A stretch of 64,000 nucleotides of DNA. It comes from an uncultured delta proteobacterium. GTDB taxonomy: Bacteria > Myxococcota > Myxococcia > Myxococcales > Myxococcaceae. Below are positions 12,712-57,839 of the stretch, one piece after another. The notes under the pieces are model-generated. The model was not told the origin of the DNA, did not search any database, and worked only from the letters and a program-made list of their open reading frames with translations. Each line of letters starts with the position of its first letter. The stretch's first letter is position 1. A program made the position numbers and the translations under genes. Where the stretch lies: NCBI GenBank assembly GCA_963776345.1, contig CAVZMH010000017.1, forward strand, positions 1 to 64,000, given 5' to 3'.

Positions 12712-13197
12712 ATGCGCCGTCGGGTTCTCGCTGGCTCGTTCGTCATTCTCCTCGGGTGTGCGTCCAGCCGCCCCGGGGAGAATGTGGAACAGGCCCGAGT
12801 GACCGAATCCAAGTGCTCCGAGGCGGACCGAGAGAGGGCAGGGTCTGTCACCGCGCACATCGTCAAGCGAGTCGACCCCGAGTACGTCAGCGTGCACGTG
12901 GGAAAGGGCCTCGGAGACGAGCAGCTCGTCGGCGCTCGCGTCGCTTTCCGTGTGCCCGCGGACTGGGCTGTTGGAGTTCTGGTTCAGGCAGCCCGCTGCT
13001 CGCAAGCCGCCTTCTTGCTTCGGGGGACGGTCTCGGCACCGATCGACCATCTCTGGGAACCGGGGACCTGGATCGATGTCAAGGCCGTGGGTGGAGTCAG
13101 CTCCTCACGGGAGGCGCAGGTCGTTCTGAAGACGGTCACAGGCGACGCAGCCGAGCGGCTTCTCGAGCGCGTTCGCGCCTTCGCCATCCAACGCTGA
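12712..13197 (+). CDS. Hypothetical lipoprotein
   Basis: MRRRVLAGSFVILLGC lipobox-type signal. Confidence 0.55.
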   Translation: MRRRVLAGSFVILLGCASSRPGENVEQARVTESKCSEADRERAGSVTAHIVKRVDPEYVSVHVGKGLGDEQLVGARVAFRVPADWAVGVLVQAARCSQAAFLLRGTVSAPIDHLWEPGTWIDVKAVGGVSSSREAQVVLKTVTGDAAERLLERVRAFAIQR

Positions 13198-13246
13198 TGG
13201 TCGCCCCGCGTGGGGACACGGAGTCTCGCGCCGGCGTTCGGAAGCG

Positions 13247-14044
13247 GTGAGCGACCACACCATTCCCAAGGAGCTGGTGACTCTTCGAGCCTCGCTCGAG
13301 CTCGCCAAGCGCGCGGGGCTGTGGCTCGGCGACATCGATGCGCTCTTGCCAACCGGCTTTGCTCCGCATCATCGGCCACGAACGCGTGCCCTCTCGACCG
13401 ACGAGCTCGGCCAGCTGCTGGCCCTCCTGCCGCCAGCCCGAGCCGCGCAGGTGGGCTTCATCGTGGCGACGTCCGCTTGCTGGAGCGAAGCGGTGAAGGC
13501 TCGCCGCAGCGACGTTCAGCTCGATTCAGGCTGGGTCCACATCCGCGGCACCAAGCGGGCTGCCAGAGATCGGCACATCCTCGTCCGACACCCCGCTCTC
13601 GCCAGCCTGCTCGCGTACGCGCTCAAGCACGCTCCTGGCGAGGACCTGCTCTTCCCCTCCTGGAGCAACGTCCGCCGCGATCTCCTCATCGCCTGCCAGC
13701 AGGCCGGCATCGAGCCCTGCTCTCCGAACGACCTGCGCCGCACCTACGCCAAGTGGATGCGACTCGCACGAGTTCCGGCTGAAGTTGTTGCTCCAACCAT
13801 GGGCCACCGGGACACGCGCATGGTCGAGCGCGTCTATGGCCGCCTGTCGCCTGAGGAAATCGGCGCGCTGCTCACGGCCCACTTCGCTCCGGACTGCATC
13901 ACCGGTGCATCAAACAGCGTGGATTCGGCCGGAAAACGTGGACGGAATGGACGCTCGCGCCGCGCCAACCCAGCGAAAACAGTGCCCAGGGGCGGAATCG
14001 AACCACCGACACGGGGATTTTCAGTCCCCTGCTCTACCAACTGA
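13247..14044 (+). pseudogene. Tyrosine integrase, 5'-truncated (copy A); ORF runs antisense into tRNA-Phe
   Basis: Same motifs as copy B; ends VPRGGIEPPTRGFSVPCSTN. Confidence 0.8.
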
Positions 14045-26750: not shown

Positions 26751-27503
26751 ATGACCTCGTTCTGGCTGTCGATCCAGTCGTTCGCGCGGACCGCACCGTG
26801 GGTGGTGTTGATCTCCGCCGCCGGCGTCTTCCCTCTGCTCTTCTTCGTGACCGCGCCCTACGGGCGGCACTTCCGTCCCGGCTGGGGCCCCGCGATGGGC
26901 TCGAGGGTCGGATGGATCGCGATGGAGTGGCCGTCGGTCTTCGTCTTCGCCCTGGTGTGGATTGCCAACCCGCTGTTCACCACCCCGATGGTGATGGCGC
27001 TGGGGATCCTCTGGCTCATCCACTACCTGCAGCGCACCTTCGTCTTCTCGCTGCTCCTCGCAGGCCCGGGGAAGAAGCAGTCGGTTCTCACCGTGGCGAT
27101 GGCGAACGTGTTCAACCTGTTCAACGCCACGGGAAACGCGGCGGCGCTCACCGAGAGGCCGTTCGATGCGTCCTTCTTCGTCGGCGTCACCCTCTTCGCC
27201 GCGGGCTTCGTGCTCAATCTGCACTCGGACCACGTGCTGCGCTCGCTGCGGGCGCCGGGCGAGACGGGCTACCGGATCCCCTTCGGCGGCGGCTTCGAGT
27301 ACGTGAGCGCCCCGAACTACCTCGGGGAGATCCTCGAGTGGGTCGGCTTCGCGCTCGCCGCGCAGACACTGGCCGCGTGGGCGTTCGCCGCCTTCACCTT
27401 CGCCAACCTCGCGCCACGCGCCCTGTCGAACCACCGGTGGTACCGGGAGAAGTTCCCCGACTACCCCGAGAATCGCCGCGCGCTCATTCCGTTCATCTGG
27501 TGA
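26751..27503 (+). CDS. 3-oxo-5-alpha-steroid 4-dehydrogenase (steroid 5-alpha-reductase) family
   Basis: APYGRH, GWIAME, HYLQR, HSDHVLRSLR, YRIPFGGGFEYVSAPNYLGEILEW, HRWYREKF. Confidence 0.88.
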   Translation: MTSFWLSIQSFARTAPWVVLISAAGVFPLLFFVTAPYGRHFRPGWGPAMGSRVGWIAMEWPSVFVFALVWIANPLFTTPMVMALGILWLIHYLQRTFVFSLLLAGPGKKQSVLTVAMANVFNLFNATGNAAALTERPFDASFFVGVTLFAAGFVLNLHSDHVLRSLRAPGETGYRIPFGGGFEYVSAPNYLGEILEWVGFALAAQTLAAWAFAAFTFANLAPRALSNHRWYREKFPDYPENRRALIPFIW

Positions 27504-46866: not shown

Positions 46867-47250
46867 TCAGACGGCGATGGCCTGGGGCAGCGCTCCCAGG
46901 CGCCGGTCCGCGGTGAGGAGGCGGAGCGTCTCGACTTCGCACTGCGCGAGGAGCAGACGGTCGAACGGATCACCGTGCTCGAGGGCCACCCGTTCCACCG
47001 CCGTGGCGTGACGGAGGGTGACGTCGAGGGTCTCGAACCCCGCCTGCTCGACCGCCTCGAGCAACGACCCGAGCGGGCCCTCCAGCCGCAGCTTGCCGAG
47101 CGAAGCCTTGATCGCGATCTCCCAGGCGCTCGCGGCGCTGACCCAGCAGGTGTTCGCCGGGGCGGACAGGAGCGACCTCACTCCCCGCGAGAGCTTCGGG
47201 CTGTCGCTCAGGACCCAGAGGAGCACGTGCGTGTCCAGCAGGAGCTTCAC
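46867..47250 (-). CDS. vapC: VapC PIN-domain toxin
   Basis: LLLDTHVLLW, SAASAWEIAIK, HGDPFDRLL. Confidence 0.92.
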   Translation of the reverse strand: MKLLLDTHVLLWVLSDSPKLSRGVRSLLSAPANTCWVSAASAWEIAIKASLGKLRLEGPLGSLLEAVEQAGFETLDVTLRHATAVERVALEHGDPFDRLLLAQCEVETLRLLTADRRLGALPQAIAV

Positions 47251-47507
47251 GGCTCGACCGACCCGCCGAAGAGGCGATCCTGCTCCTTCCTCGACAGCGG
47301 CCGGTCGAAGTCCTTCGAGAGACCCGAGAACAGCTTCTTGCCGGTCCCGAAGCGAATCCGACGGCCCGGAGCGAGACCCGTCAACCGGGCGACCGGCTTC
47401 CCGGCCCGGGCAAGGATGATCTCCTCGCCGGCCTCGGCCGCCTCGATGAGCCGCGAGAGCGTGGTCTTCGCCTCGTGGATGTTGACGGTTTTCAGAGATT
47501 CACCCAT
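47247..47507 (-). CDS. Phd/YefM antitoxin
   Basis: VNIHEAKTTLSRL...GEEIILARAGKPVARL; 4-bp overlap with toxin. Confidence 0.92.
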   Translation of the reverse strand: MGESLKTVNIHEAKTTLSRLIEAAEAGEEIILARAGKPVARLTGLAPGRRIRFGTGKKLFSGLSKDFDRPLSRKEQDRLFGGSVEP

Positions 47508-47508
47508 C

Positions 47509-47533
47509 CTAGCTAAACTTAGTCTAGTCTAGA
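47509..47533 (-). promoter_or_regulatory. AT-rich TA promoter/operator with three CTAG motifs
   Basis: TCTAGACTAGACTAAGTTTAGCTAG directly before antitoxin ATG; TAGACT -10-like; imperfect palindrome. Confidence 0.5.
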
Positions 47534-47610
47534 AGACCGCGGAAGGCCACGGTGCATGCCTCGCCGCCCGGTTGCCTGACGGGCGGGGATCGGGCAGAGC
47601 ACCCCCTTCC

Positions 47611-49836
47611 ATGTTCGTCGCCCTGGCCCGGGCCGTCTCCCGGCACCGCCTGGTGGTCCTCGCCTGCACCCTGGTGGTGCTGGCGCTGGCGGTGCTCGCC
47701 CTGGTCCGCGGCGGGAGCCTGACCAGCGGGACCATCGAGGGCACCGAGTCCTGGCAGGCCGCCGCGCTGGTCCGGGGCGCCGCCGGGGCCGACACCGACA
47801 CCAGCGTGGTCGCCCTGCTCACCCACGCGTCGATGCCTGCGACCGATCCGGTGTTCCAGGCGGCGATGGCCCTGGTGCTGGAGAAGGTCAGCGCCCGCCC
47901 CGAGGTGGAGGGCGTGGTCTCGGTGGTCACCGCGCCGGAGCAGGCCCGGAGCCGCTTCCTCTCGCCCGACGGCAAGGCCGCGCTGGTGCTGGTCCGCCTC
48001 AAGGGCGACGAGAAGGCGGCGGTGGGCGCGTTTCCGGCGGTGAAGGCCGCGCTGCGCGACGGTCCCTTCGACGTGGCGGTGACCGGGAAGCCGGCGTTCC
48101 TCGTCGACCTGAACACCCAGCTGGAGCACGACCTGCTCCGCGCCGAGCTCATCTCCTTCCCGCTCGCGCTGCTGGTCCTCCTCTCGGTGTTCGGGACGCT
48201 GGTCGCCGCGCTCCTGCCCATCGTGGTCGGCGGGCTCGCGGTGCTGGCCGGCGTCGCCGCGGTGCTCGCGCTCTCGCACCACCTGGACATGGCCCAGTAC
48301 ACGCTGAACGTGGTGACCCTCATCGGGCTCGGCGTGGCCATCGACTACTCGCTGTTCATGGTCAGCCGCTTCCGGGCCGAGCTGCACGCCGGGGCGAGCG
48401 TGGAGGCGGCGCTCGAGCGGACCGTCGACACCGCCGGGCGCGCGGTCGCCTTCTCCGGACTCGCGGTCGCGGCCGGGCTCTCGGGGCTGCTCTTCTACAA
48501 GGGCTCGTACCTCGCCGCGATGGGGCTGGGCGGGGCCATCGTCGTCGCCTTCTCGGTCCTCTTCTCGCTCACCGCGCTCCCGGCCATCCTCGGCTGGCTC
48601 GGCCCCCGCGTGGACATGGGGCGGGTGCCGATCCCGGCGTTCGGCCTGAAGGCCGGGGCGTGGGAGCGGATCGCCGGCTGGGTGATGGAGCATCCGCTCA
48701 GGGTGCTCCTGCCGACCCTGGGCTTCATCGCGCTGGTGGGCTGGCCCTTCGTCCGGCTCCAGACCGCCGGAACGGACATCACCGCGCTCCCGGAGTCGGC
48801 CGAGTCGCGCCAGGGCGCGGCGGCGCTGGACCGCGCCTTCCCCGGGCAGAATGCGACCCGCATCCTGGTCGCGGTGCGCTTCCCGGGCGCGCCCTTCACC
48901 CCCGACCGGGCCGGGGCGCTCTACGACGCGACCCGGCGCTGGGCCAAGCTCCCCGGTGTCGTCGGGGTGGAGAGCATCGTCGACCTCGACCCCAACGTGA
49001 CCCGCGACCAGTACGTCCAGCTCGCCGGCGCCGGGCCCGCCTTCCGGCCACCCGAGTTCGCGCTCGCAGAGGCGGCGTATCTGCACGGCGACGTCGCGGT
49101 GGCCCAGGTGCTCACCGCCGCCCCGGCGTCGAGCGTCGAGGCCCGGCGGCTCGTCGACGCGCTGCGGAAGGACCGCGTGGTGGGCGACGGGCGCGCCCTG
49201 GTCGGCGGGCAGAGCGCGGGCGACGTGGACTCGACCGCCTTCGTCCTCGACCGGGCGCCGCTCGCCGTCGGCTTCGTGGTCCTGGTCACGCTGGTGGCGC
49301 TCTTCGTCCTCCTCGGCTCCGTCGTCCTGCCGCTGAAGGCGGTGGTGATGAACTTCCTCTCCATCGCCGCGAGCTTCGGAGCGCTGGTGTGGATCTTCCA
49401 GGAGGGAAATCTGAAATCGCTGCTCGACTTCCAGCCCGGCCCGATCGAGCCCGCGCTTCCCGTGCTGCTCTTCTGCACCCTGTTCGGCCTGTCGATGGAC
49501 TACGAGGTCCTGATGCTCTCGCGGATGCGCGAGGAGTGGACCCGCACCCACGACAACCGGCACAGCGTGGCCGAGGGCCTGGAGCAGACCGGCAGCCTGA
49601 TCACCAGCGCCGCGGCGATCATGGTCGCGGTGTTCGCAGCCTTCGCCCTGGCCCGCATCCTGGTGGTGAAGGCGATGGGCGTGGGCATGGCGATCGCCGT
49701 GGCGCTGGACGCCACGCTGGTGCGGGTCCTGGTCGTCCCCGCCACGATGCGCCTCTTCGGGGCGGCGAACTGGTGGGCGCCGCGGGTGCTGAAGCGCCTG
49801 GCGCTCGCGGCGCATGGAGAGAAGAGCAGTCCATGA
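47611..49836 (+). CDS. MMPL family (RND) lipid transporter
   Basis: GLGVAIDYSLFMVSRFRAE and FGLSMDYEV motifs, two TM bundles. Confidence 0.92.
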   Translation: MFVALARAVSRHRLVVLACTLVVLALAVLALVRGGSLTSGTIEGTESWQAAALVRGAAGADTDTSVVALLTHASMPATDPVFQAAMALVLEKVSARPEVEGVVSVVTAPEQARSRFLSPDGKAALVLVRLKGDEKAAVGAFPAVKAALRDGPFDVAVTGKPAFLVDLNTQLEHDLLRAELISFPLALLVLLSVFGTLVAALLPIVVGGLAVLAGVAAVLALSHHLDMAQYTLNVVTLIGLGVAIDYSLFMVSRFRAELHAGASVEAALERTVDTAGRAVAFSGLAVAAGLSGLLFYKGSYLAAMGLGGAIVVAFSVLFSLTALPAILGWLGPRVDMGRVPIPAFGLKAGAWERIAGWVMEHPLRVLLPTLGFIALVGWPFVRLQTAGTDITALPESAESRQGAAALDRAFPGQNATRILVAVRFPGAPFTPDRAGALYDATRRWAKLPGVVGVESIVDLDPNVTRDQYVQLAGAGPAFRPPEFALAEAAYLHGDVAVAQVLTAAPASSVEARRLVDALRKDRVVGDGRALVGGQSAGDVDSTAFVLDRAPLAVGFVVLVTLVALFVLLGSVVLPLKAVVMNFLSIAASFGALVWIFQEGNLKSLLDFQPGPIEPALPVLLFCTLFGLSMDYEVLMLSRMREEWTRTHDNRHSVAEGLEQTGSLITSAAAIMVAVFAAFALARILVVKAMGVGMAIAVALDATLVRVLVVPATMRLFGAANWWAPRVLKRLALAAHGEKSSP

Positions 49837-51023
49837 GCTCGGTCCTGGTCGTGCTGGTCGTCGTGGCGCTGCTCCTGCTGGTCGACGGGCACCTGCGGCT
49901 GTCCCGCGTCCTCCGCCGTCGCCCCCCGGCGCCGCCCTTTCCGGCGACCGCCCCGTCCATCACCGTCATCCGCCCGGTCAAGGGGCTGGACCCCGGCGCC
50001 GAGGACAACATCCGCGCGTTTCTCACGATGGAATACCCCGGGCGGCTCGAGCTGCTCTTCGTCGTCGACTCGGAGGAGGACCCGGCGTACCCGGCCATCA
50101 AGCGGCTCATCGCCGAGCACCCCACCACGGCGCAGCGGGTGGAGCTCCTGTTCTCGGGCTCGCCGCCGCCGCGGCGGACGGGGAAGCTCAACGCGATGCT
50201 GGTGGGCGTCGCCGCGGCCACCGGCGAGCTGCTGGCGTTCAACGACTCGGACAGCCGCCCGTCGAAGGACGTGCTGGGGCGGCTGGTCTCCGAGCTGCTC
50301 GCCCGGCCCGACTGCGGCTGCACCTTCGCCCCGGTGGTCGGCGAGGCGGATCGGCCCACCGCCGGCGACGTGGCGTACGGGCTCCTGATGAACGCCTGGT
50401 ACGGGCCCACGGTCTCCTGGGCCGCCGAGCCGAAGGGCGAGCTGGATTTCATCATGGGCCAGCTGATGGTGTGCCGGCGCGAGGCGCTCGACGCGGTGGG
50501 CGGGGTCGGCGTGGCCGAGGGCCAGTTCGTGGACGACATGGTCATCGGCCGCGCGCTCTGGAAGGCGGGCTGGAAGAACGTGGTGATCGAGGTGCCGCTG
50601 CGGATCGTCATCGGCGGCATGGGGCTCCTCCAGTTCTTGACGACCTTCCGCCGGTGGATGCTCTTCGGCGAGGGCGGTCTGTCCTTCCGCTTCACCTGGC
50701 CCAACTGGATGCGCGGCATCGCCTGCTGGATCGCCTGGGCGGCGCTGGGCGTGGCCCTCGCCACCGGGAACCTGGCCTCCGCAGGCCTCGCGCTCCTGCC
50801 CATCGCCTTCTCGGTGTGGACCCAGGCCTCGCTCCAGCGCGCGCACCACGGCCCGCGCATCGCGCTGCACCAGCTCTGGGTGCCGGCGGTGCTCCCGCTG
50901 GTGGCCGGCCTGGTGGCGCTCGCCGCCCGGCTGAACCGCCGGGTCGACTGGCGGGGCCGCAGCTACGAGCTGGACGGCGAGGCGCGACTCGACGCCAGCG
51001 GCTCGGCGTCGGCGGGGACGTGA
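49833..51023 (+). CDS. GT2/GT21 glycosyltransferase (ceramide glucosyltransferase / HpnI-like)
   Basis: N-terminal TM, IRPVKG, GKLNAM, NDSD, VDD, FRRW, C-terminal WRGRSY; ATGA overlap with MMPL. Confidence 0.82.
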   Translation: MSSVLVVLVVVALLLLVDGHLRLSRVLRRRPPAPPFPATAPSITVIRPVKGLDPGAEDNIRAFLTMEYPGRLELLFVVDSEEDPAYPAIKRLIAEHPTTAQRVELLFSGSPPPRRTGKLNAMLVGVAAATGELLAFNDSDSRPSKDVLGRLVSELLARPDCGCTFAPVVGEADRPTAGDVAYGLLMNAWYGPTVSWAAEPKGELDFIMGQLMVCRREALDAVGGVGVAEGQFVDDMVIGRALWKAGWKNVVIEVPLRIVIGGMGLLQFLTTFRRWMLFGEGGLSFRFTWPNWMRGIACWIAWAALGVALATGNLASAGLALLPIAFSVWTQASLQRAHHGPRIALHQLWVPAVLPLVAGLVALAARLNRRVDWRGRSYELDGEARLDASGSASAGT

Positions 51024-52354
51024 GGCGGATGGGCCAGGACCCGGTCCTCGACCGCCCCGGCCATCGCGGTGCGGAGGTGGGGCAGGGCCGAGGCGACCAG
51101 CATGGCTCCGGCGCTCACCGCCCGGCGCGGCCCGCGGACGGCCCTGACCGACCCCGCGCCCAGCGCGACCAGGCCGTGGGCCACCACGCGGGCGTACTCG
51201 CGCGCCATGACCGACATGCGAGCCTCGCGGGTGGAGAGCAGCGACATGGAGACGCGCGCCCCGGTCGGCGAGCGCTCCCAGTACCGGAACAGCCCGCGCC
51301 GCAGCGCCGCCATCTCGGCGGTGTCGCTGGAGAAGGCCTCGTAGAGCGCCGAGGCCAGCGCGATGCGGGTGCGGTTCGCCGGCCGGCGCGCGCTGGCGTA
51401 GGCGGCGAGCGCGCGCGGGAGGTCGTTCTTCGCGTCGGTCATCGCCCGGTGGAGCACGCGGGCGTCGCGCACCGCGGAGGCCATGCCACTGGCGCTCAGC
51501 GGGTGGCAGCAGCCCGCGGCGTCGCCCACCAGCACCACGTGACCCTTGTAGACGTGGTCCATGATGCGGGTGTCGTTGGAGGCGACCAGCGGCGGCTCGC
51601 GCTGGAGCGCATCGAGGATGGCCTGGCGCAGCGGCTGGGGCACGCCGGAGAGGATGTCCGGCTCGGTCCGGACGCGGTCGGGCGTGGAGCCGAGCGGCAG
51701 ATCCACCATCACCCGGGCGTGGGTGCCCGAGATGGGGTAGGCCAGCACCGGAGCGGGACCGCCGATGAAGAGGTGCCCGCGGTCCGGGTGCGGCAGCGTG
51801 TCCGCGGCCACCAGCACGCCGACCATGGTGGAGAGGCGATCGTGCCGCTCGGTGATGCCCAGCGCCCGGCGGAGCGGCGAGGCGCGGCCGTCCGCGGCCA
51901 CCAGCATGCGGGCACGCACGCGCTCGGAGTGTCCCTCGTGGGACAGCGTGGCCTCCACGCCGTCCGGCCCGTCCGAGAGCAGGTTGACCCGGGTCCTGCG
52001 ACGCACCTCGACGTCGCCGCGCTTCTCGAGGATGTCCAGCAGCGGGGTGATGAGCGCGTGGTGCTCGATGCCGAGGCCGCGGTTGCCCGGACCGTAGGGC
52101 AGGAGCGCGGTCGTCTCCTTGTCCACCACCGCGAAACCGACGATGGGCACGCCACCCGAGCGGAGCACCTCGGAGAACCCGAAGGCGGTCAGCTCCTCCA
52201 CGCCCACCGGATGGAGCAGCTCTCCGGCCAGCAGCTTCCGGCGGTCCTGCCCCGCGTCGGCGAGCAGGGTCCGCAGGCCAAGCTGGCCCATGGCTGCAGC
52301 GGTGGTGCACCCCGCGGGGCCACCACCGGCGACGAGCACGTCCACTTCGATCAA
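50963..52354 (-). CDS. Squalene epoxidase (squalene monooxygenase)-like FAD oxidoreductase
   Basis: GGGPAG, GELLHP, ADGRAS, GDAAGCCHPLSASGM; TTG start with GAGG RBS; divergent from SQS-OSC. Confidence 0.8.
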   Translation of the reverse strand: MIEVDVLVAGGGPAGCTTAAAMGQLGLRTLLADAGQDRRKLLAGELLHPVGVEELTAFGFSEVLRSGGVPIVGFAVVDKETTALLPYGPGNRGLGIEHHALITPLLDILEKRGDVEVRRRTRVNLLSDGPDGVEATLSHEGHSERVRARMLVAADGRASPLRRALGITERHDRLSTMVGVLVAADTLPHPDRGHLFIGGPAPVLAYPISGTHARVMVDLPLGSTPDRVRTEPDILSGVPQPLRQAILDALQREPPLVASNDTRIMDHVYKGHVVLVGDAAGCCHPLSASGMASAVRDARVLHRAMTDAKNDLPRALAAYASARRPANRTRIALASALYEAFSSDTAEMAALRRGLFRYWERSPTGARVSMSLLSTREARMSVMAREYARVVAHGLVALGAGSVRAVRGPRRAVSAGAMLVASALPHLRTAMAGAVEDRVLAHPPHVPADAEPLASSRASPSSS

Positions 52355-52446
52355 GGCAGCAACCTCACCCCGGCCCTTGTTTCCGGGCTTCTTATAGAGT
52401 TTGACGCCCCTCGGCGCACCCTCCGGGGTGTTTCACTGGGTGTCTC

Positions 52447-53487
52447 GTGACCGGAGCCGAAGATTTCTGCCGCCGCGCTCTTCCGGAGGTGTCCCGCACC
52501 TTCGCGCTGAACATCCCGGTCCTTCCTCCGCCGCTGGACCTGGTGGTCACCGTCGCCTACCTCCTGTGCCGCATCGCCGACACGCTGGAGGACGAGGCCC
52601 GGGGGCAGGTGTCGGAGCGCGCCGAGCTGTTTCACGCGCTCGGACAGCTGGTGACCCTCGCGCCGGGCTGGGAGAAGCGGGCCGAGGAGTTCGCGCGCCG
52701 CTCGGTCGCCGCGCTCCGCCCCTCCGCGCCCTCGGCCGAGGTGCAGCTGGTCCAGGGGACACCGACGGTCCTGGAGGCGATGAGCGGCCTGCCGGACTGG
52801 ACTCACCGCCACATCGCCGCCTGCGTGGGAGAGATGACCGGCGGGATGGCACAGGTGATGGCCGATCTCGACGGCGGCGCGCCGCAGGGCCTGCCGGATC
52901 TGCGCGACACCCTCCAGTACTGCTACTACGTCGCCGGAACGGTGGGGGTGATGCTCACCGGACTCTTCGTCGACGGGGTCGACTCGGTGCGGCCGCGGAA
53001 GGCCGAGCTCGGACCGCGGGCCCCGGCGTTCGGGCGGGCGCTGCAGCTCACCAACATCCTCAAGGACATCCGCGAGGACCTGGACCGCGGCTTCTGCTGG
53101 CTGCCGCGGACCTACCTGGCGCGGCACGGCCTCTCGCCGGCCACGCTGATCCTCCCCGAGCGCCGGACGGCCGCGGTCGCGTTGCTCGACGACCTGGTGG
53201 CGGTGGCCCGCCACGAGTGCGACGTGGCCTTCGAGTACTCGCTCTTGCTTCCGCCTACCGAGCCCGGGCTCCGGCTGTTCTGCCTCTGGCCGCTCCTGTT
53301 CGCGCTGCGCACGCTCGGGGCGCTGGCCCACAACCCGGCGGTGTTCGAGCCGGCGCCGGTGAAGATCGGCCGGGAGACGGTGATGCGGATCATGGTCCTC
53401 ACCCGGGAGAGCGTGGCCGACGACGGCGGCCTGCAGGCGCTCTACGCCGAGTGCGCCCGCGGTCTCCCCGAGGCTCGGGCGGGATGA
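52447..53487 (+). CDS. Squalene synthase (squalene/phytoene synthase family)
   Basis: VSRTFAL, YLLCRIADTLED, YCYYVAGTVG, LQLTNILKDIRED. Confidence 0.9.
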   Translation: MTGAEDFCRRALPEVSRTFALNIPVLPPPLDLVVTVAYLLCRIADTLEDEARGQVSERAELFHALGQLVTLAPGWEKRAEEFARRSVAALRPSAPSAEVQLVQGTPTVLEAMSGLPDWTHRHIAACVGEMTGGMAQVMADLDGGAPQGLPDLRDTLQYCYYVAGTVGVMLTGLFVDGVDSVRPRKAELGPRAPAFGRALQLTNILKDIREDLDRGFCWLPRTYLARHGLSPATLILPERRTAAVALLDDLVAVARHECDVAFEYSLLLPPTEPGLRLFCLWPLLFALRTLGALAHNPAVFEPAPVKIGRETVMRIMVLTRESVADDGGLQALYAECARGLPEARAG

Positions 53488-55430
53488 CTGCCCCGAGGAC
53501 GCGGGCCGGCGCCTCCGCCACCGAGCGGGGGCTGGAGGTGCTCGCCGCCACCCAGGACGTGGGCGGCTCGTGGAAGGGCGACTACGGCGGGCCGCTGTTC
53601 CTGGTGCCGGTGTACGTGGCCGGGCTCGAGCTCCTCGGGCGGCCGCCCGACGCCGGAACGCGCGACGGCTTCATCGGCTACCTCCGCGGGCACCAGAACC
53701 CGGACGGCGGCTGGGGGCTGGACGTCGAGTCGCACAGCCACGTCTTCACCTCGGTGCTGGTCTACGTGACCTTGCGGCTCCTGGGAGTGCCGGCCGAGGA
53801 CCCCCCGCTGCAGCGGGCGCGGGCCTGGTTCCTGCCACTCGGCGGGCCGCTGTCCAGCGGCTCGTGGGGAAAGTTCATCCTGGCGCTGCTCGGGCTGTAC
53901 GACTACGCGGGCCTGGTCCCGGTGCCGCCAGAGCTGTGGCTCTTGCCCGAGTCGCTGCCGCTGCACCCCTCGAAGCTCTGGTGCCACTGCCGGATGGTGT
54001 ACCTGCCGATGAGCTGGCTCTACGGCCGGCGGGTGCGCGCCACGGAGACGCCGCTGCTGGCAGCCATCCGCCGGGAGATCTACGCCGAGCCCTACCAGAC
54101 CGTCGATTGGCCCGCGGCGCGCGAGCGGGTGGCCGAGACGGATGCGTACACCCCGAGGACCTCGTACCTGCGCGCGGCGAACGGCGTGCTCGGGCTGTGG
54201 GAGCGGTTCGCCCCGGCGGGAGCGCGCGAGCGGGCGCTGGACCTCGTCCTGGATCAGATCCGCCGCGAGGACCAGGCGACCAGCTACATCTGCATCGGGC
54301 CCATCAACAAGGTGCTGAACACCGTGGTGTGGCACATCGCCCGGCCCGGCGGGCCCGAGGTCGAGGCCCATGTGAAGCGGCTGCCCGACTACCTGTGGCG
54401 CGCGGCCGACGGGCTGAAGATGCAGGGCTACAACTCCTCGGAGCTCTGGGACACCGCGTTCGCGGTGCAGGGCGTCCTGGCGACCGGGGAGAGCGAGCGG
54501 ATGCGCCCGTCGCTGGAGCGCGCGGCGCACTACCTCGAGTCCAACCAGGTGCTGGAGGACGTGCCGGAGATGGAGAAGGGCTACCGGCACCGGAGCCGCG
54601 GCGGCTGGCCGTTCTCCACCCGGGCGCACGGCTGGCCGATCAGCGACTGCACCGCGGAGGGGCTCAAGGCCTCGCTCCTGCTGGAGAAGGTGGGGATGAA
54701 CCAGGTCCCCCGCGTGCGGCTGCGCGAGGCGGTGGAGGAGATCCTCTCGCTGCAGAACGAGGACGGCGGCTGGGCGACCTACGAGCTGCAGCGCGGGCCG
54801 AAGTGGCTCGAGGCGCTGAACCCCTCGGACGTCTTCTCGACCATCATGGTGGACGTCTCCTACGTCGAGTGCACCTCGGCCTGCGTGCAGGCGCTCGCCG
54901 CGTGGAGAGCCTTCGCCCCCGAGGACGCGCGGTGGCTGCGCGGGCCGATCCGCCGGGGCGAGCGGTTCATCCGGAAGGTGCAGCGCGCCGACGGCTCCTG
55001 GGAGGGCAGCTGGGGCGTGTGCTTCAGCTACGGCGCCTGGTTCGGGACCACGGGGCTGGTCGCCGCGGGAGCGCGGCCGGACGACCCGGCGCTCCGGCGC
55101 GCGGCGGACTACCTCGAGGCCCGGCAGCGCCCGGACGGGAGCTGGAGCGAGACGCTGGAGTCCAACCGCGCGCGGCGCTGGGTGGACGGGGCGCGCGGCC
55201 ACGCGGTGCAGACCTCGTGGGCGCTCCTGTCGCTGGCGGCCTGCGGGCGGCGCGACTCGGAGGCGGTGCGGCGCGGCGTGGCCTGGCTCCGGGAGCACCA
55301 GGGCGAGGACGGCCGCTGGCCCGAGCAGCCCATCACCGGCGTCTTCAACCGGACCAGCGCGATCCACTACGACATCTACCTGCGGCTCTTTCCCGTCTGG
55401 GCGCTCGCGGTCTGCGGCGCCGAGCGCTGA
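53484..55430 (+). CDS. 2,3-oxidosqualene cyclase, cycloartenol-synthase type
   Basis: DCTAE motif (not the DXDD of SHC), WCHCRMVYLPM, MQGYN, HGWPISDCTAE, QW repeats. Confidence 0.92.
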   Translation: MTAPRTRAGASATERGLEVLAATQDVGGSWKGDYGGPLFLVPVYVAGLELLGRPPDAGTRDGFIGYLRGHQNPDGGWGLDVESHSHVFTSVLVYVTLRLLGVPAEDPPLQRARAWFLPLGGPLSSGSWGKFILALLGLYDYAGLVPVPPELWLLPESLPLHPSKLWCHCRMVYLPMSWLYGRRVRATETPLLAAIRREIYAEPYQTVDWPAARERVAETDAYTPRTSYLRAANGVLGLWERFAPAGARERALDLVLDQIRREDQATSYICIGPINKVLNTVVWHIARPGGPEVEAHVKRLPDYLWRAADGLKMQGYNSSELWDTAFAVQGVLATGESERMRPSLERAAHYLESNQVLEDVPEMEKGYRHRSRGGWPFSTRAHGWPISDCTAEGLKASLLLEKVGMNQVPRVRLREAVEEILSLQNEDGGWATYELQRGPKWLEALNPSDVFSTIMVDVSYVECTSACVQALAAWRAFAPEDARWLRGPIRRGERFIRKVQRADGSWEGSWGVCFSYGAWFGTTGLVAAGARPDDPALRRAADYLEARQRPDGSWSETLESNRARRWVDGARGHAVQTSWALLSLAACGRRDSEAVRRGVAWLREHQGEDGRWPEQPITGVFNRTSAIHYDIYLRLFPVWALAVCGAER

Positions 55431-55697
55431 GGGACGCCGCGGCGGCGCGGGTGCGGAGCCGAGGGGCCCGAGTGGAGGCGCGAGTGGAGGTGCCAAACAC
55501 TCGTGACCGCCAGCGCTGCTCGGCCGGCCCTGCGGCCGTCTCCCACTGCGCGCGGGACTGAGCCCGCGGCTCGCGCACCGGCGCCCGCGCGGTCGGGCCG
55601 ATTCGCTGCATCGTGCCGACCGCTCACCGCAGCCCGTGCAAGAGTGCCCCCCTCTCCGCGACCCCTCGGGATGGTCGCCACTCCACGGAACGCTCGG

Positions 55698-57839
55698 ATG
55701 CGCCTCCCTCTCGCCCTCGCCTCGGTCACCCTCCTCGCCTGCGCCGGAGCCCCGAAGCCCGCTCCGCCCCCGCCTCGCGAGCCAGCGCCCCTCGCCCCCC
55801 CACCGGTGGTGAAGGCTCCCCCGCCGGTCGACGAGCCGCTGGGCGCCGCGGCGGCGCGGATCTCCGGGCCGGTCCCGGCGTTCACCGCCGCCTGCCAGGA
55901 CGCGATGGCCCGCGCGCGCGTCGGCCTCGAGGCGGTGAAGACCAGCAGGCCGCCCCGGGACACCGTGGCGACGCTCACCGCGTACGACGATGCGCTCGCC
56001 GCCATCAACGACGCCGGCGCGCAGTCCGAGCTCGCGCGGCAGGGCAGCCCGGACCCGGCGATGCGCAAGGCCGCCGAGCAGTGCGACCGGGAGATCCAGG
56101 CGATGTCCACCGCCATCAACCAGGATCGCGCCCTCTACGACGTGCTCTCCGGGCTCGACCTCTCGGGGCAGGACGGGGCGACCCGGTGGTGGATGACGCG
56201 CGACCTGCGCGAATTCCGCCGCGCCGGCGTGGACCGGGACGACACCACCCGCCAGGAGATTCGCGCCCTGAGCGACGAGATCGTCGCCATCGGCCAGGAG
56301 TTCGACCGGAACATCCGCGACGGCACGAAGACCGTGGCCTTCGCCCCCGCCGACCTCGCCGGCTTGCCGGAGGACTTCCGCAAGGCGCATCCGCCCGGGG
56401 CCGACGGCAAGGTGACCCTCAACACCGACTACCCGGACTACCACCCGTTCATGGCCTACGCCCGCAGCGGCAAGGCACGGGAGACGCTGTGGCGGGCCTA
56501 CAACACCCGGGCGCCGGCCAACGCCGAGGTCCTCACCCGCCTGCTCGCCAAGCGGTACGCGCTGGCCAGGTTGCTCGGCTACGCCAGCTGGGCCGACTAC
56601 ACCACCGAGAACAAGATGATCGGCACCGGGAAGGCCGCCTCCGACTTCGTGGAGCGGATCTCCTCGGCCGCGGCCACGCGGTCCAGGGTCGAGCTAGCCC
56701 AGGTCCTCGCCCGCAAGCGCAAGGACGTGCCTGAGGCGGCCCACCTCGAGGGCTGGGACTACGGTTACTACTCCGACCGGGTGAAGATGGAGCAGTACCG
56801 CTTCGACGCCAAGGCGGCCCGTCCGTACTTCGAGGCCGACCACATGGTTCAGGGCGTGATGGACGTCTCGGGGAAGCTGCTCGACGTCACGTACCGTCCG
56901 GTGCAGGGCGCGACCGTCTGGCACCCGGAGGTCCAGGTCTACGACGTCATCGGAGGGCCCTCGTTCGGCGAGCGCTCGGGCCGGTTGCTCGGACGCATCT
57001 ACCTCGACCTCCACCCTCGCGAGGGGAAGTACAAGCACGCCGCCCAGTACACCGTCATCTCCGGCCAGGCGGAGCACCGGCTTCCCGAGGGGGCGCTGCT
57101 CTGCAACTTCCCCCGCTCGGGCGGACTGATGGAGTACGGCGACGTCCAGACGCTGTTCCACGAGTTCGGCCACCTGGTGCACCACGTGCTGGGCGGGCAC
57201 ACCGGGTGGGCCGCGAACTCCGGGGTGCGAACCGAGCAGGACTTCGTCGAGGCCCCCTCGCAGATGCTCGAGGAGTGGACGCGCGACGGGGGCGTGCTCC
57301 AGGGATTCGCCCGCCACGTGAAGACCGGCCAGCCCATCCCGGCGAAGATGGTCAAGCAGCTCAGGGCCGCGGAGGAGTTCGGCAAGGGCGTCGACGTGCG
57401 GCAGCAGATGTTCTACGCCGCGACCAGCCTGCACCTCTACGACCGCGACCCACGCGGGCTGGAGCCGACGGCCTTCGTCGCCGATCTGCAGTCCCGCTAC
57501 GGGCCGTTCCCCTACGTCCCGGGCACCACGTTCTACACGGCCTTCGGTCACCTGAACGGATACAGCGCCGTGTACTACACGTACATGTGGTCGCTGGTCA
57601 TCGCCAAGGACCTCTTCACCGCGTTCGAGGCGAAGGGTGTGTTCGATCCGGAGACCGGCGCGCGCTACCGGCGCACCGTCCTCGAGCCGGGCGGCGGCAA
57701 GCCGGCGGCGGAGCTGGTCGCCGACTTTCTCGGGCGCCCCTACGACTTCAGGGCCTACGAGGCGTGGCTCGGGCGCGGAGCGCGTCCGGCACCGAAGACG
57801 CCCGCTGCCGGAGGACGGGGACCCGCGGCGCTTCACTGA
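55698..57839 (+). CDS. M3 family oligopeptidase, lipoprotein
   Basis: HEFGH, DFVEAPSQMLE, YSAVYYTYMWS; LLAC lipobox. Confidence 0.92.
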   Translation: MRLPLALASVTLLACAGAPKPAPPPPREPAPLAPPPVVKAPPPVDEPLGAAAARISGPVPAFTAACQDAMARARVGLEAVKTSRPPRDTVATLTAYDDALAAINDAGAQSELARQGSPDPAMRKAAEQCDREIQAMSTAINQDRALYDVLSGLDLSGQDGATRWWMTRDLREFRRAGVDRDDTTRQEIRALSDEIVAIGQEFDRNIRDGTKTVAFAPADLAGLPEDFRKAHPPGADGKVTLNTDYPDYHPFMAYARSGKARETLWRAYNTRAPANAEVLTRLLAKRYALARLLGYASWADYTTENKMIGTGKAASDFVERISSAAATRSRVELAQVLARKRKDVPEAAHLEGWDYGYYSDRVKMEQYRFDAKAARPYFEADHMVQGVMDVSGKLLDVTYRPVQGATVWHPEVQVYDVIGGPSFGERSGRLLGRIYLDLHPREGKYKHAAQYTVISGQAEHRLPEGALLCNFPRSGGLMEYGDVQTLFHEFGHLVHHVLGGHTGWAANSGVRTEQDFVEAPSQMLEEWTRDGGVLQGFARHVKTGQPIPAKMVKQLRAAEEFGKGVDVRQQMFYAATSLHLYDRDPRGLEPTAFVADLQSRYGPFPYVPGTTFYTAFGHLNGYSAVYYTYMWSLVIAKDLFTAFEAKGVFDPETGARYRRTVLEPGGGKPAAELVADFLGRPYDFRAYEAWLGRGARPAPKTPAAGGRGPAALH

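Follow-up and report, generated by a model that had tools for sequence, protein, structure and literature searches.

A five-gene cassette (positions 47611-55430) in the genome of an uncultured member of the Myxococcaceae encodes a putative pathway by which a sterol would be made, glycosylated and exported. The cassette lies in a window (the whole stretch of DNA analysed, 64,000 nucleotides; C17:1-64000, contig CAVZMH010000017.1) of a 5.1-Mb genome that is assembled in 24 contigs and is 98% complete, and close protein relatives carry the source label 'Myxococcaceae MAGs' (metagenome-assembled genomes). Three sterol enzymes, a squalene synthase-type enzyme (SQS), a squalene epoxidase (SE) and a 2,3-oxidosqualene cyclase (OSC), are combined with a membrane glycosyltransferase (GT) and an MMPL-family transporter (MMPL). 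We propose that cycloartenol is made, that the GT glycosylates it and that the MmpL3-like transporter moves the product from the inner membrane, a chain of steps to which we assign a probability of about 0.5. The narrower proposal, that the MMPL handles a sterol or a sterol derivative, is probable. The linkage is strong and the cassette is real and conserved, and its chemistry is a prediction. The cassette consists of the following features:

47611-49836, + strand: MMPL transporter, 741 aa, from ATG at 47611 with a TGA ending at 49836.
49833-51023, + strand: GT, a GT21-type membrane glycosyltransferase (UGCG/HpnI-like), 396 aa, from ATG at 49833.
50963-52354, - strand: squalene epoxidase (FAD monooxygenase), 463 aa, with Pfam SE and FAD_binding_3 matches.
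52355-52446, no strand: divergent intergenic spacer, 92 bp, separating the epoxidase gene from the SQS-OSC pair and presumed to act as a promoter region.
52447-53487, + strand: squalene synthase-type SQS_PSY enzyme, 346 aa, GTG start, Pfam PF00494.
53484-55430, + strand: OSC of predicted cycloartenol-synthase type, 648 aa, ATG start, TIGR03463.

The five genes described in the initial annotation of this DNA were matched base for base, as were two ATGA overlaps, in which the MMPL stop overlaps the GT start (49833-49836) and the SQS stop overlaps the OSC start (53484-53487), and a 61-bp overlap between the 3' tails of the GT and squalene epoxidase genes (50963-51023). The gene identities given there were also correct by Pfam and NCBIfam assignment. 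Translation of the squalene epoxidase starts at a TTG at 52354 or alternatively at a GTG three codons in. Each of the five genes shows purifying selection, the Nei-Gojobori dN/dS values being 0.24 for MMPL, 0.27 for GT, 0.16 for SE, 0.14 for SQS and 0.13 for OSC in comparison with the same-genus locus L002, the only locus used as the Corallococcus comparisons were saturated. Because gene order is kept in other genomes and dN/dS lies between 0.13 and 0.27, the five open reading frames (ORFs) are real genes and not chance frames. A scan of 47200-55800 for the sigma-70-type promoter consensus gave no promoter-like sites, so it is the arrangement of the genes that suggests a promoter role for the 92-bp spacer. 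The same scan gave one terminator-like site, inside the OSC gene, a count no higher than in shuffled sequence.

The squalene epoxidase matches the Pfam SE family (PF08491) with 110 bits (cut-off 20.1) and FAD_binding_3 with 112.5 bits, and has a GXGXXG motif at its N-terminus, identifying it as a squalene epoxidase. SQS belongs to the SQS_PSY family (PF00494; 167.1 bits), and among NCBIfam models it matches squalene synthase best (TIGR01559), with 96.9 bits against an equivalog cut-off of 286.75; a squalene synthase function is suggested by its family and its gene context. OSC scores 882.1 bits against TIGR03463, above the cut-off of 851, which places it among the oxidosqualene cyclases, and it can be aligned over its full length with human lanosterol synthase (1w6k; E 2e-181). 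Residue D388, within the motif SDCTAE, aligns to the human catalytic D455, and at the positions of human T381, C449 and V453 it has Y316, H382 and I386, the Y/H/I triad of cycloartenol synthases. The same triad was present in 49 of 51 related loci with a readable triad, including all 30 OSCs that are linked to a GT. Isoleucine at position 453, as opposed to valine, marks cycloartenol synthases according to a figure legend in Wei et al., 2016 (PMC4919349, Fig. 7 legend). Judged by these residues, the cyclase is of the cycloartenol type.

No squalene-hopene cyclase (SHC) was found over cut-off in the whole genome, where the sole match was OSC itself, and no HpnH was found above cut-off. None of the three P450s of the whole genome was convincing as a CYP51: the best PDB matches were other P450s (7wzl, 3dbg), CYP51 appeared for one P450 only, at E ~1e-33 to 1e-34, and the third P450 was assessed with the NCBIfam scan only. 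A Pfam scan of 49 ORFs agreed with the initial annotation that the window has no CYP51, isomerase or demethylase gene. Its suggestion of cycloartenol as the sterol moiety also fits the cyclase residues and the lack of a CYP51-like P450 in the genome. Given a cycloartenol-type OSC and no CYP51-like P450 genome-wide, cycloartenol or a close variant is the likely end sterol and aglycone.

The GT matches Glyco_transf_21 (PF13506) with 63.1 bits (cut-off 21.7), which places it in the GT21/UGCG-like family. Among NCBIfam models it matches HpnI (TIGR03472) best, with 126.7 bits against a cut-off of 310, and the solved protein nearest to it in sequence is ceramide glucosyltransferase (26qs/26qf; E 1.2e-15, 60.6 bits), aligned over residues 19-276 only; both results agree with a prior call of the gene as GT21/HpnI-like. 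The catalytic-motif positions of UGCG are occupied by D83, D138, D235 and R274-W275, which are invariant across 19 homologues, with D83 accompanied by an invariant D79. In an AlphaFold2 model (mean predicted local distance difference test score, pLDDT, 87.7; predicted template modelling score, pTM, 0.86), an N-terminal helix precedes a GT-A domain, which is followed by C-terminal helices. Foldseek placed membrane-embedded GT-A enzymes on top (BcsA, hyaluronan synthase, PcManGT), from a library that returned no UGCG entries. The model is therefore GT-A and does not have the GT-B fold of known sterol glycosyltransferases (GT1 UGT80; GT4 HP0421-type). From the conserved motif residues, the GT is predicted to be catalytically intact.

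A second GT (L122; C24:820-2034, - strand) is more HpnI-like, with 251 bits against the same cut-off of 310. Of 171 family genomes, 121 carry it (a count that takes in the unpublished genome G195), OSC-less genomes included. As this HpnI-like GT is widespread and also occurs where OSC is missing, the cassette GT is best regarded as an accessory, sterol-tracking paralogue. About 6.5 kb from the second GT are a GtrA-like gene and a gene for a phosphonate-binding-type protein of PF12974, the Pfam family to which BstB belongs.

The MMPL belongs to the MMPL family of resistance-nodulation-division (RND) transporters (PF03176; 252.4 bits in two stretches). Its best NCBIfam model is MmpL3 (NF052608; 345.5 bits), below the equivalog cut-off of 1400, and it scored far lower against the HpnN models (TIGR03480, 47.7 bits, cut-off 751.85; NF052374, 36.9 bits, cut-off 1100). 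PDB matches gave the same picture (MmpL3, E 3e-83; HpnN 5khn, E 4.8e-9), and the transporter is MmpL3-like and not HpnN-like. D245/Y246 and D630/Y631 align to D256/Y257 and D645/Y646 of MmpL3. These Asp-Tyr pairs, in transmembrane segments TM4 and TM10, form the proton relay of MmpL3, and the relay is predicted to be intact. With its last residue at 741, the protein lacks the C-terminal cytoplasmic domain of MmpL3; it would act in the manner of MmpL3 without being an equivalog. The idea of a sterol counterpart of the hopanoid cluster accordingly survives as an analogy (cyclase, GT and RND transporter), with no subfamily-level homology and a transporter that is MmpL3-like.

In an even sample of 401 Myxococcota genomes, OSC-type matches were present in 108 genomes at E <=1e-120 and in 110 at 1e-50, the latter including two at 33% identity. 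A GT orthologue (at least 52% identity) was present in 46 of the 401, every one of which (46/46) has an OSC. GT and OSC share a contig in 41 of the 46, no more than ~4.3 kb apart, and in the remaining five (G329, G185, G311, G150, G183) the matches abut contig ends. The linkage of the GT with osc across Myxococcota that the initial annotation put forward as a test thus holds, the orthologue occurring only in OSC-carrying genomes and beside sterol genes. Weaker GT matches (38-47%) occurred in 13 further genomes, never beside OSC, with an OSC elsewhere in nine and none in four. In genus g9, OSC, GT and MMPL are each present in six of 32 genomes, the same six. The MMPL at 57% identity or more was found in 56 of the 401 genomes, all OSC-positive and made up of the 46 with GT and ten GT-less genomes. 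In family f27 a 51-52% identical MMPL lies within the OSC cluster in four of four genomes. The transporter has a wider association with OSC than the GT has. At 49-55% identity the OSC link of the MMPL is lost, the copies in genus g22 being on other contigs.

A second survey covered 80 loci in named genomes that hold GT relatives. MMPL, GT, SE, SQS and OSC were all together in 28 loci, including those of Corallococcus exercitus, C. coralloides KYC2213, C. interemptor, C. carmarthensis, C. terminator BB12-2, Myxococcus llanfairpwll..., M. eversor, M. qinghaiensis and many Myxococcaceae MAGs. Four loci were cut contigs that still showed sterol genes, four were Corallococcus contigs ending after the GT, and one, L059 (8215-14280) in a Kofleriaceae MAG, has GT-SE-SQS-OSC on one strand with no MMPL. 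Thirty-nine loci have no cassette-type neighbours, at a GT identity of 38-48%. Linkage is kept despite rearrangement, with a different gene order in L013 and L030 and an insert in L027 and L028. The counted genomes are interrelated and the co-occurrence counts are not independent events; the independent signals are the patchy pattern in g9, the linkage through rearrangements and the differently ordered Kofleriaceae cluster. Across 12 loci (39 ORFs) the cassette flanks had no further conserved gene except HMG-CoA reductase, directly upstream of and co-directional with MMPL in L010 (6175-7680) and L030 (6241-7662), which represent two Myxococcaceae MAG lineages. Since its flanks differ between genera, the cassette behaves as a movable unit.

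A GT tree was built with a quick IQ-TREE method (LG+G4, 79 rows), leaving out high-scoring segment pairs shorter than 300 aa (L038, L039, L041, L062). Every linked GT falls within a 38-row clade (Shimodaira-Hasegawa-like approximate likelihood ratio test, SH-aLRT, 89). Immediately outside are the GT of genome G162 and another unlinked group, and next out is a Kofleriaceae clade (support 100) of four MMPL-only GTs and that of L059. One 49-row clade (support 91) contains all MMPL- or sterol-linked GTs, and outside it are Polyangia, Planctomycetota, Gemmatimonadota and other relatives. The tree is rooted on the C24 paralogue from the same genome as the cassette, whose branch is very long, which makes its polarity uncertain. 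The Kofleriaceae MAG of L059 has MMPL and GT on another contig (L054), making two GT paralogues with split associations.

The proposed pathway would run from farnesyl diphosphate (FPP) through squalene and 2,3-oxidosqualene to cycloartenol by the action of SQS, SE and OSC. The GT, a member of the inverting GT2-type superfamily with a predicted cytoplasmic GT-A domain between its N-terminal helix and C-terminal helices, would move a sugar from a UDP-sugar onto the only (3-)hydroxyl of cycloartenol at the cytoplasmic face or inner leaflet. A beta-glycoside would be expected because the enzyme is an inverting GT-A, and by analogy the sugar may be glucose (Glc, as in UGCG) or N-acetylglucosamine (GlcNAc, as in HpnI). 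Translational coupling links the GT to the MMPL, which would flip or extract this product, presumably a steryl glycoside, towards the periplasm and outer membrane in the way that MmpL3 handles trehalose monomycolate, and probably carries free sterol as well. A stronger version, on which we are tentative and which falls somewhat short of even odds, is that the GT would be the first sterol glycosyltransferase from a sterol-synthesising bacterium and, with the MmpL3-like flippase, would convert approximately the whole cycloartenol pool to exported glycoside. Corallococcus and its kin would then look sterol-free by gas chromatography coupled to mass spectrometry (GC-MS) because the whole pool would be exported steryl glycoside.

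Several observations weigh against this pathway. To our knowledge the known sterol glycosyltransferases are GT-B enzymes, the nearest characterised relatives of the GT act on ceramide (UGCG) and bacteriohopanetetrol (HpnI) and not on sterols, and the gene neighbourhood alone suggests the acceptor and donor. The support of 89 for the 38-row clade is moderate and six unlinked Myxococcaceae/Archangiaceae rows are nested inside it. Where a cyclase was not found, MMPLs of 49-55% identity are seen, some accompanied by a GT of 46-50% identity and some not. In four of the 80 loci, all Kofleriaceae (L036, L037, L054, L065, of which only L037 has 10-kb flanks), MMPL and GT are present and sterol genes are not in the stretch covered. 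Genomes G162, G157, G192, G208 and G118 carry a 49-55% identical MMPL and no squalene-cyclase family gene over cut-off, and in G162 (98% complete) an MMPL (54%) and a GT (46%) are adjacent (L143; C37 8324-11724), with no squalene-cyclase match in the genome. As G162 has no such gene, its pair would have to act on a sterol that the cell acquires or on a different kind of compound; the eight flanking ORFs scanned held nothing informative.

Such pairs in cyclase-less genomes are what would be expected if the GT acted on a non-sterol lipid (ceramide, a diol or a polyprenol-type lipid), was found in the sterol locus through joint remodelling of outer-membrane lipids and left the MMPL to export that glycolipid, free sterol or both. 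Ceramide glucosyltransferase is the best solved relative of the GT and the name that several sources give to its homologues, and the distant paralogues at the 39 loci occur without sterol neighbours. We nevertheless consider this unlikely, since 26 of the 32 g9 genomes lack the GT orthologue, which is present only with OSC, a pattern not expected for a general-lipid role, and since a separate, widely conserved HpnI-like GT is available for that role. Neither a serine palmitoyltransferase-type gene nor another lipid gene was seen beside the relatives (87 + 39 + 8 flanking ORFs); the flanks of the distant GT paralogues (15 loci, 80 ORFs) were mixed (GH38, START-like, acyltransferase+ACPS+MIP, DUF4331) and gave no clue to the acceptor. 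Cycloartenol also presents a single hydroxyl, at the same membrane position as in the known acceptors.

The ten GT-less genomes (four in g3, five in g14, one in g19) also count against the proposed pathway, as MMPL starts ~45-50 bp after OSC in them, in the order SQS-OSC-MMPL. The GT-less clusters L123-L127 and L142 (G182, G172, G163, G203, G299, G293) have this order too, with an MMPL 62-65% identical to that of the cassette. These genomes link MMPL to OSC and so imply that the transporter does not require a glycoside and that the GT may be a later add-on. Of the glycosylate-and-export reading in the initial annotation, the gene identities, the GT-OSC linkage and the cycloartenol type stand, and the homology to the hopanoid cluster, whose transporter is HpnN, and the MMPL as a partner specific to the GT do not. 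The MMPL could then be the sterol transporter proper, taking free cycloartenol to the outer membrane in parallel with BstA and HpnN, with the GT a lineage-specific addition that acts on part of the pool or after export. The position of MMPL in the OSC cluster of f27 is in line with this, and proteins of Cystobacter fuscus and Stigmatella are 62-64% identical to MMPL, both being reported to give free cycloartenol in a table of Wei et al. (PMC4919349, Table 3). Zhai et al., 2024 (PMC10942540) describe BstA as an HpnN-like MMPL-family protein that adjoins osc in methanotrophs and binds sterols. On the other side, the GT is immediately downstream of MMPL in each GT-bearing locus and is ATGA-coupled to it in the window, which favours joint action of the two. 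The predicted topology, with the GT-A domain after a single N-terminal helix as in UGCG, also makes a cytoplasmic active site likely and would place glycosylation before export. A transporter of free sterol with an incidental GT consequently has a minor share of the probability, and we prefer joint glycosylation and export.

The literature on myxobacterial sterols bears on the same question. Wei et al. (PMC4919349), in their sections on C. coralloides DSM 2259, list COCOR_01775 as SE and COCOR_01777 as a cycloartenol-type OSC, and report that squalene was seen and no sterol despite the intact-looking SE and OSC; Bode et al., 2003, as cited there, is a second study with squalene and no sterol in C. 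coralloides. The lipid extract of DSM 2259 is described there as total, unhydrolysed and acetylated, analysed by GC-MS at ions of free sterol derivatives. Protein P0057 of DSM 2259 is a homologue of the GT with 54% identity, and its gene probably lies beside COCOR_01775, as judged from strain KYC2213 (L018). No GT from Stigmatella or Cystobacter isolates was found among the best 120 GT homologues or the 80 GT loci, which is not proof of its absence. The steryl glycoside prediction fits both the squalene-only result in C. coralloides and the free cycloartenol in Cystobacter and Stigmatella, and the cassette could explain the apparent lack of sterol in relatives that carry its genes.

A cluster that is silent in the laboratory explains the lack of free sterol in Corallococcus equally well, and absent expression is the cause suggested by Wei et al. 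in their own account of the missing sterol (PMC4919349). The cassette would in that case be cryptic or silent in ordinary growth, with no sterol product accumulating and no observable role there for GT and MMPL, as the two squalene-only studies would have it. No RNA run was listed as containing 47611-55430. We regard silence as quite improbable as an account of the cassette, in that none of the five genes is broken, each shows purifying selection, the unit is retained across several genera, and laboratory silence says nothing of function in soil. The RNA-library run X4, from the same study, gave only short contigs, at 47996-48339 and 49581-49789 (MMPL) and at 55271-55402 (OSC), with strong cross-mapping at 49209-49782; these matches were not used as evidence of expression because DNA carry-over is possible. 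Runs X1 and X2 contain a ~96%-identical relative with the same gene order over 47568-55800.

The cassette is related to known kinds of system, namely hopanoid lipid-GT and RND modules, methanotroph sterol transporters, and the steryl glycosides of eukaryotes and sterol-scavenging bacteria. As in hopanoid clusters with HpnI, HpnN and squalene-hopene cyclase, genes for a triterpenoid cyclase, a GT2/GT21-type GT and an MMPL-family RND transporter lie together; unlike those clusters, the cassette has an OSC, an MmpL3-like transporter and a GT of 126.7 bits against the HpnI cut-off of 310, in a genome with neither SHC nor HpnH. The GT resembles UGCG (GT21) in length (396 aa compared to 391-394), in its colinear architecture and in the aligned D83/D138/D235/R274-W275, but the match is distant and the (Q/R)XXRW motif begins with T; the orthologue of the cassette GT is also found only beside sterol genes, unlike a general sphingolipid enzyme. 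MmpL3, the mycobacterial trehalose monomycolate flippase, is the best solved relative of MMPL and shares both Asp-Tyr pairs, and here the transporter is paired with a putative glycolipid-making enzyme. MMPL differs from it in length (741 aa compared to ~1013), in having no long C-terminal cytoplasmic domain and in its Gram-negative host.

The predicted product class, a sterol 3-O-glycoside, is that of eukaryotes (UGT80, GT1) and of Helicobacter and Borrelia (GT4). Unlike UGT80 and GT4 enzymes, which have the GT-B fold, the cassette GT is a predicted membrane GT-A enzyme, and unlike in Helicobacter and Borrelia, which use host cholesterol, the sterol would come from the same cassette. BstA, BstB and BstC of Methylococcus capsulatus offer a parallel: in this sterol producer the gene of an MMPL-family inner-membrane transporter lies together with osc, and the transporter is proposed in PMC10942540 to act in sterol trafficking to the outer membrane. 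BstA is set apart by its description there as HpnN-like, MMPL being only weakly so. The cassette has no bstB, bstC, sdmA or sdmB (no PF12974 gene), and the methanotroph system, as described there, has no GT. In the full-text literature outside subscription journals and supplements, no description was found of a myxobacterial sterol cluster that contains a GT21/HpnI-like GT or an MmpL3-like transporter.

Bacterial sterols bear on the origin of eukaryotic sterol synthesis and on sterane biomarkers, and their use by bacteria is largely unexplained. The cassette makes testable why C. coralloides keeps SE and OSC yet shows no sterol in the results given by Wei et al. (PMC4919349). The 'conjugated sterols' of sterol-producing bacteria are unidentified (PMC10202945), and the cassette offers a candidate enzyme and transporter for them. 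Clusters with MMPL and GT, with MMPL only and with neither form a natural comparison set. If the proposed pathway is true, a GT-A/GT21 enzyme would be a third, independent route to steryl glycosides beside GT1 and GT4, an MmpL3-type pump would act on triterpenoids in a Gram-negative bacterium, and surveys scoring only free sterols would undercount sterol producers.

Further genes in the flanks of the cassette and elsewhere in the genome are:

46867-47250, - strand: PIN-domain (VapC-like) gene, left flank of the cassette.
Right flank of the cassette: M3 peptidase gene.
26751-27503, + strand: Steroid_dh (PF02544), 3-oxo-5-alpha-steroid 4-dehydrogenase family, 250 aa, 158.8 bits, 20 kb from the cassette.
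C22:336073-337149: ERG4/ERG24-family gene, on another contig than the cassette.

Upstream of the PIN-domain gene there is space for a small partner ORF, up to 47507 (- strand), abutting the left end of the cassette. The Steroid_dh gene was considered as a sterol modifier and rejected, as its distribution does not track OSC: it occurs in 64 of 171 family genomes, in none of the 14 genomes of g5 (all OSC-positive) and in 11 of 13 genomes of g21 (OSC 0/12). Generic genes elsewhere in the genome comprise FA_hydroxylase (three matches), 3beta-HSD-type short-chain dehydrogenase/reductase (SDR; 13) and Rieske (four), none of them near the cluster. As these and the ERG4/ERG24-family gene exist in the genome, a minor downstream modification of the sterol is possible.

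Other cyclase-like sequences were seen in related genomes. Between SQS and SE in L030, a 209-aa ORF (12933-13562) has an SQHop_cyclase_C match, and short squalene-cyclase-like pieces are also present in or near the cassettes at G373:C41:19526-19957 and G249:C570; these are possibly duplication remnants. Two genomes of the same family, in genus g4 (G055, G280), are very small (2.3-2.7 Mb) and have an OSC of 48-49% identity; in G055 (L130, the one g4 locus examined) SE, SQS, GT and MMPL were not found within 9 kb of OSC. In family f14 (G068, G098, G108, G116), OSC-like matches of 38-40% lie in long frames of 1142-1234 aa, which are possibly fused or extended cyclases.

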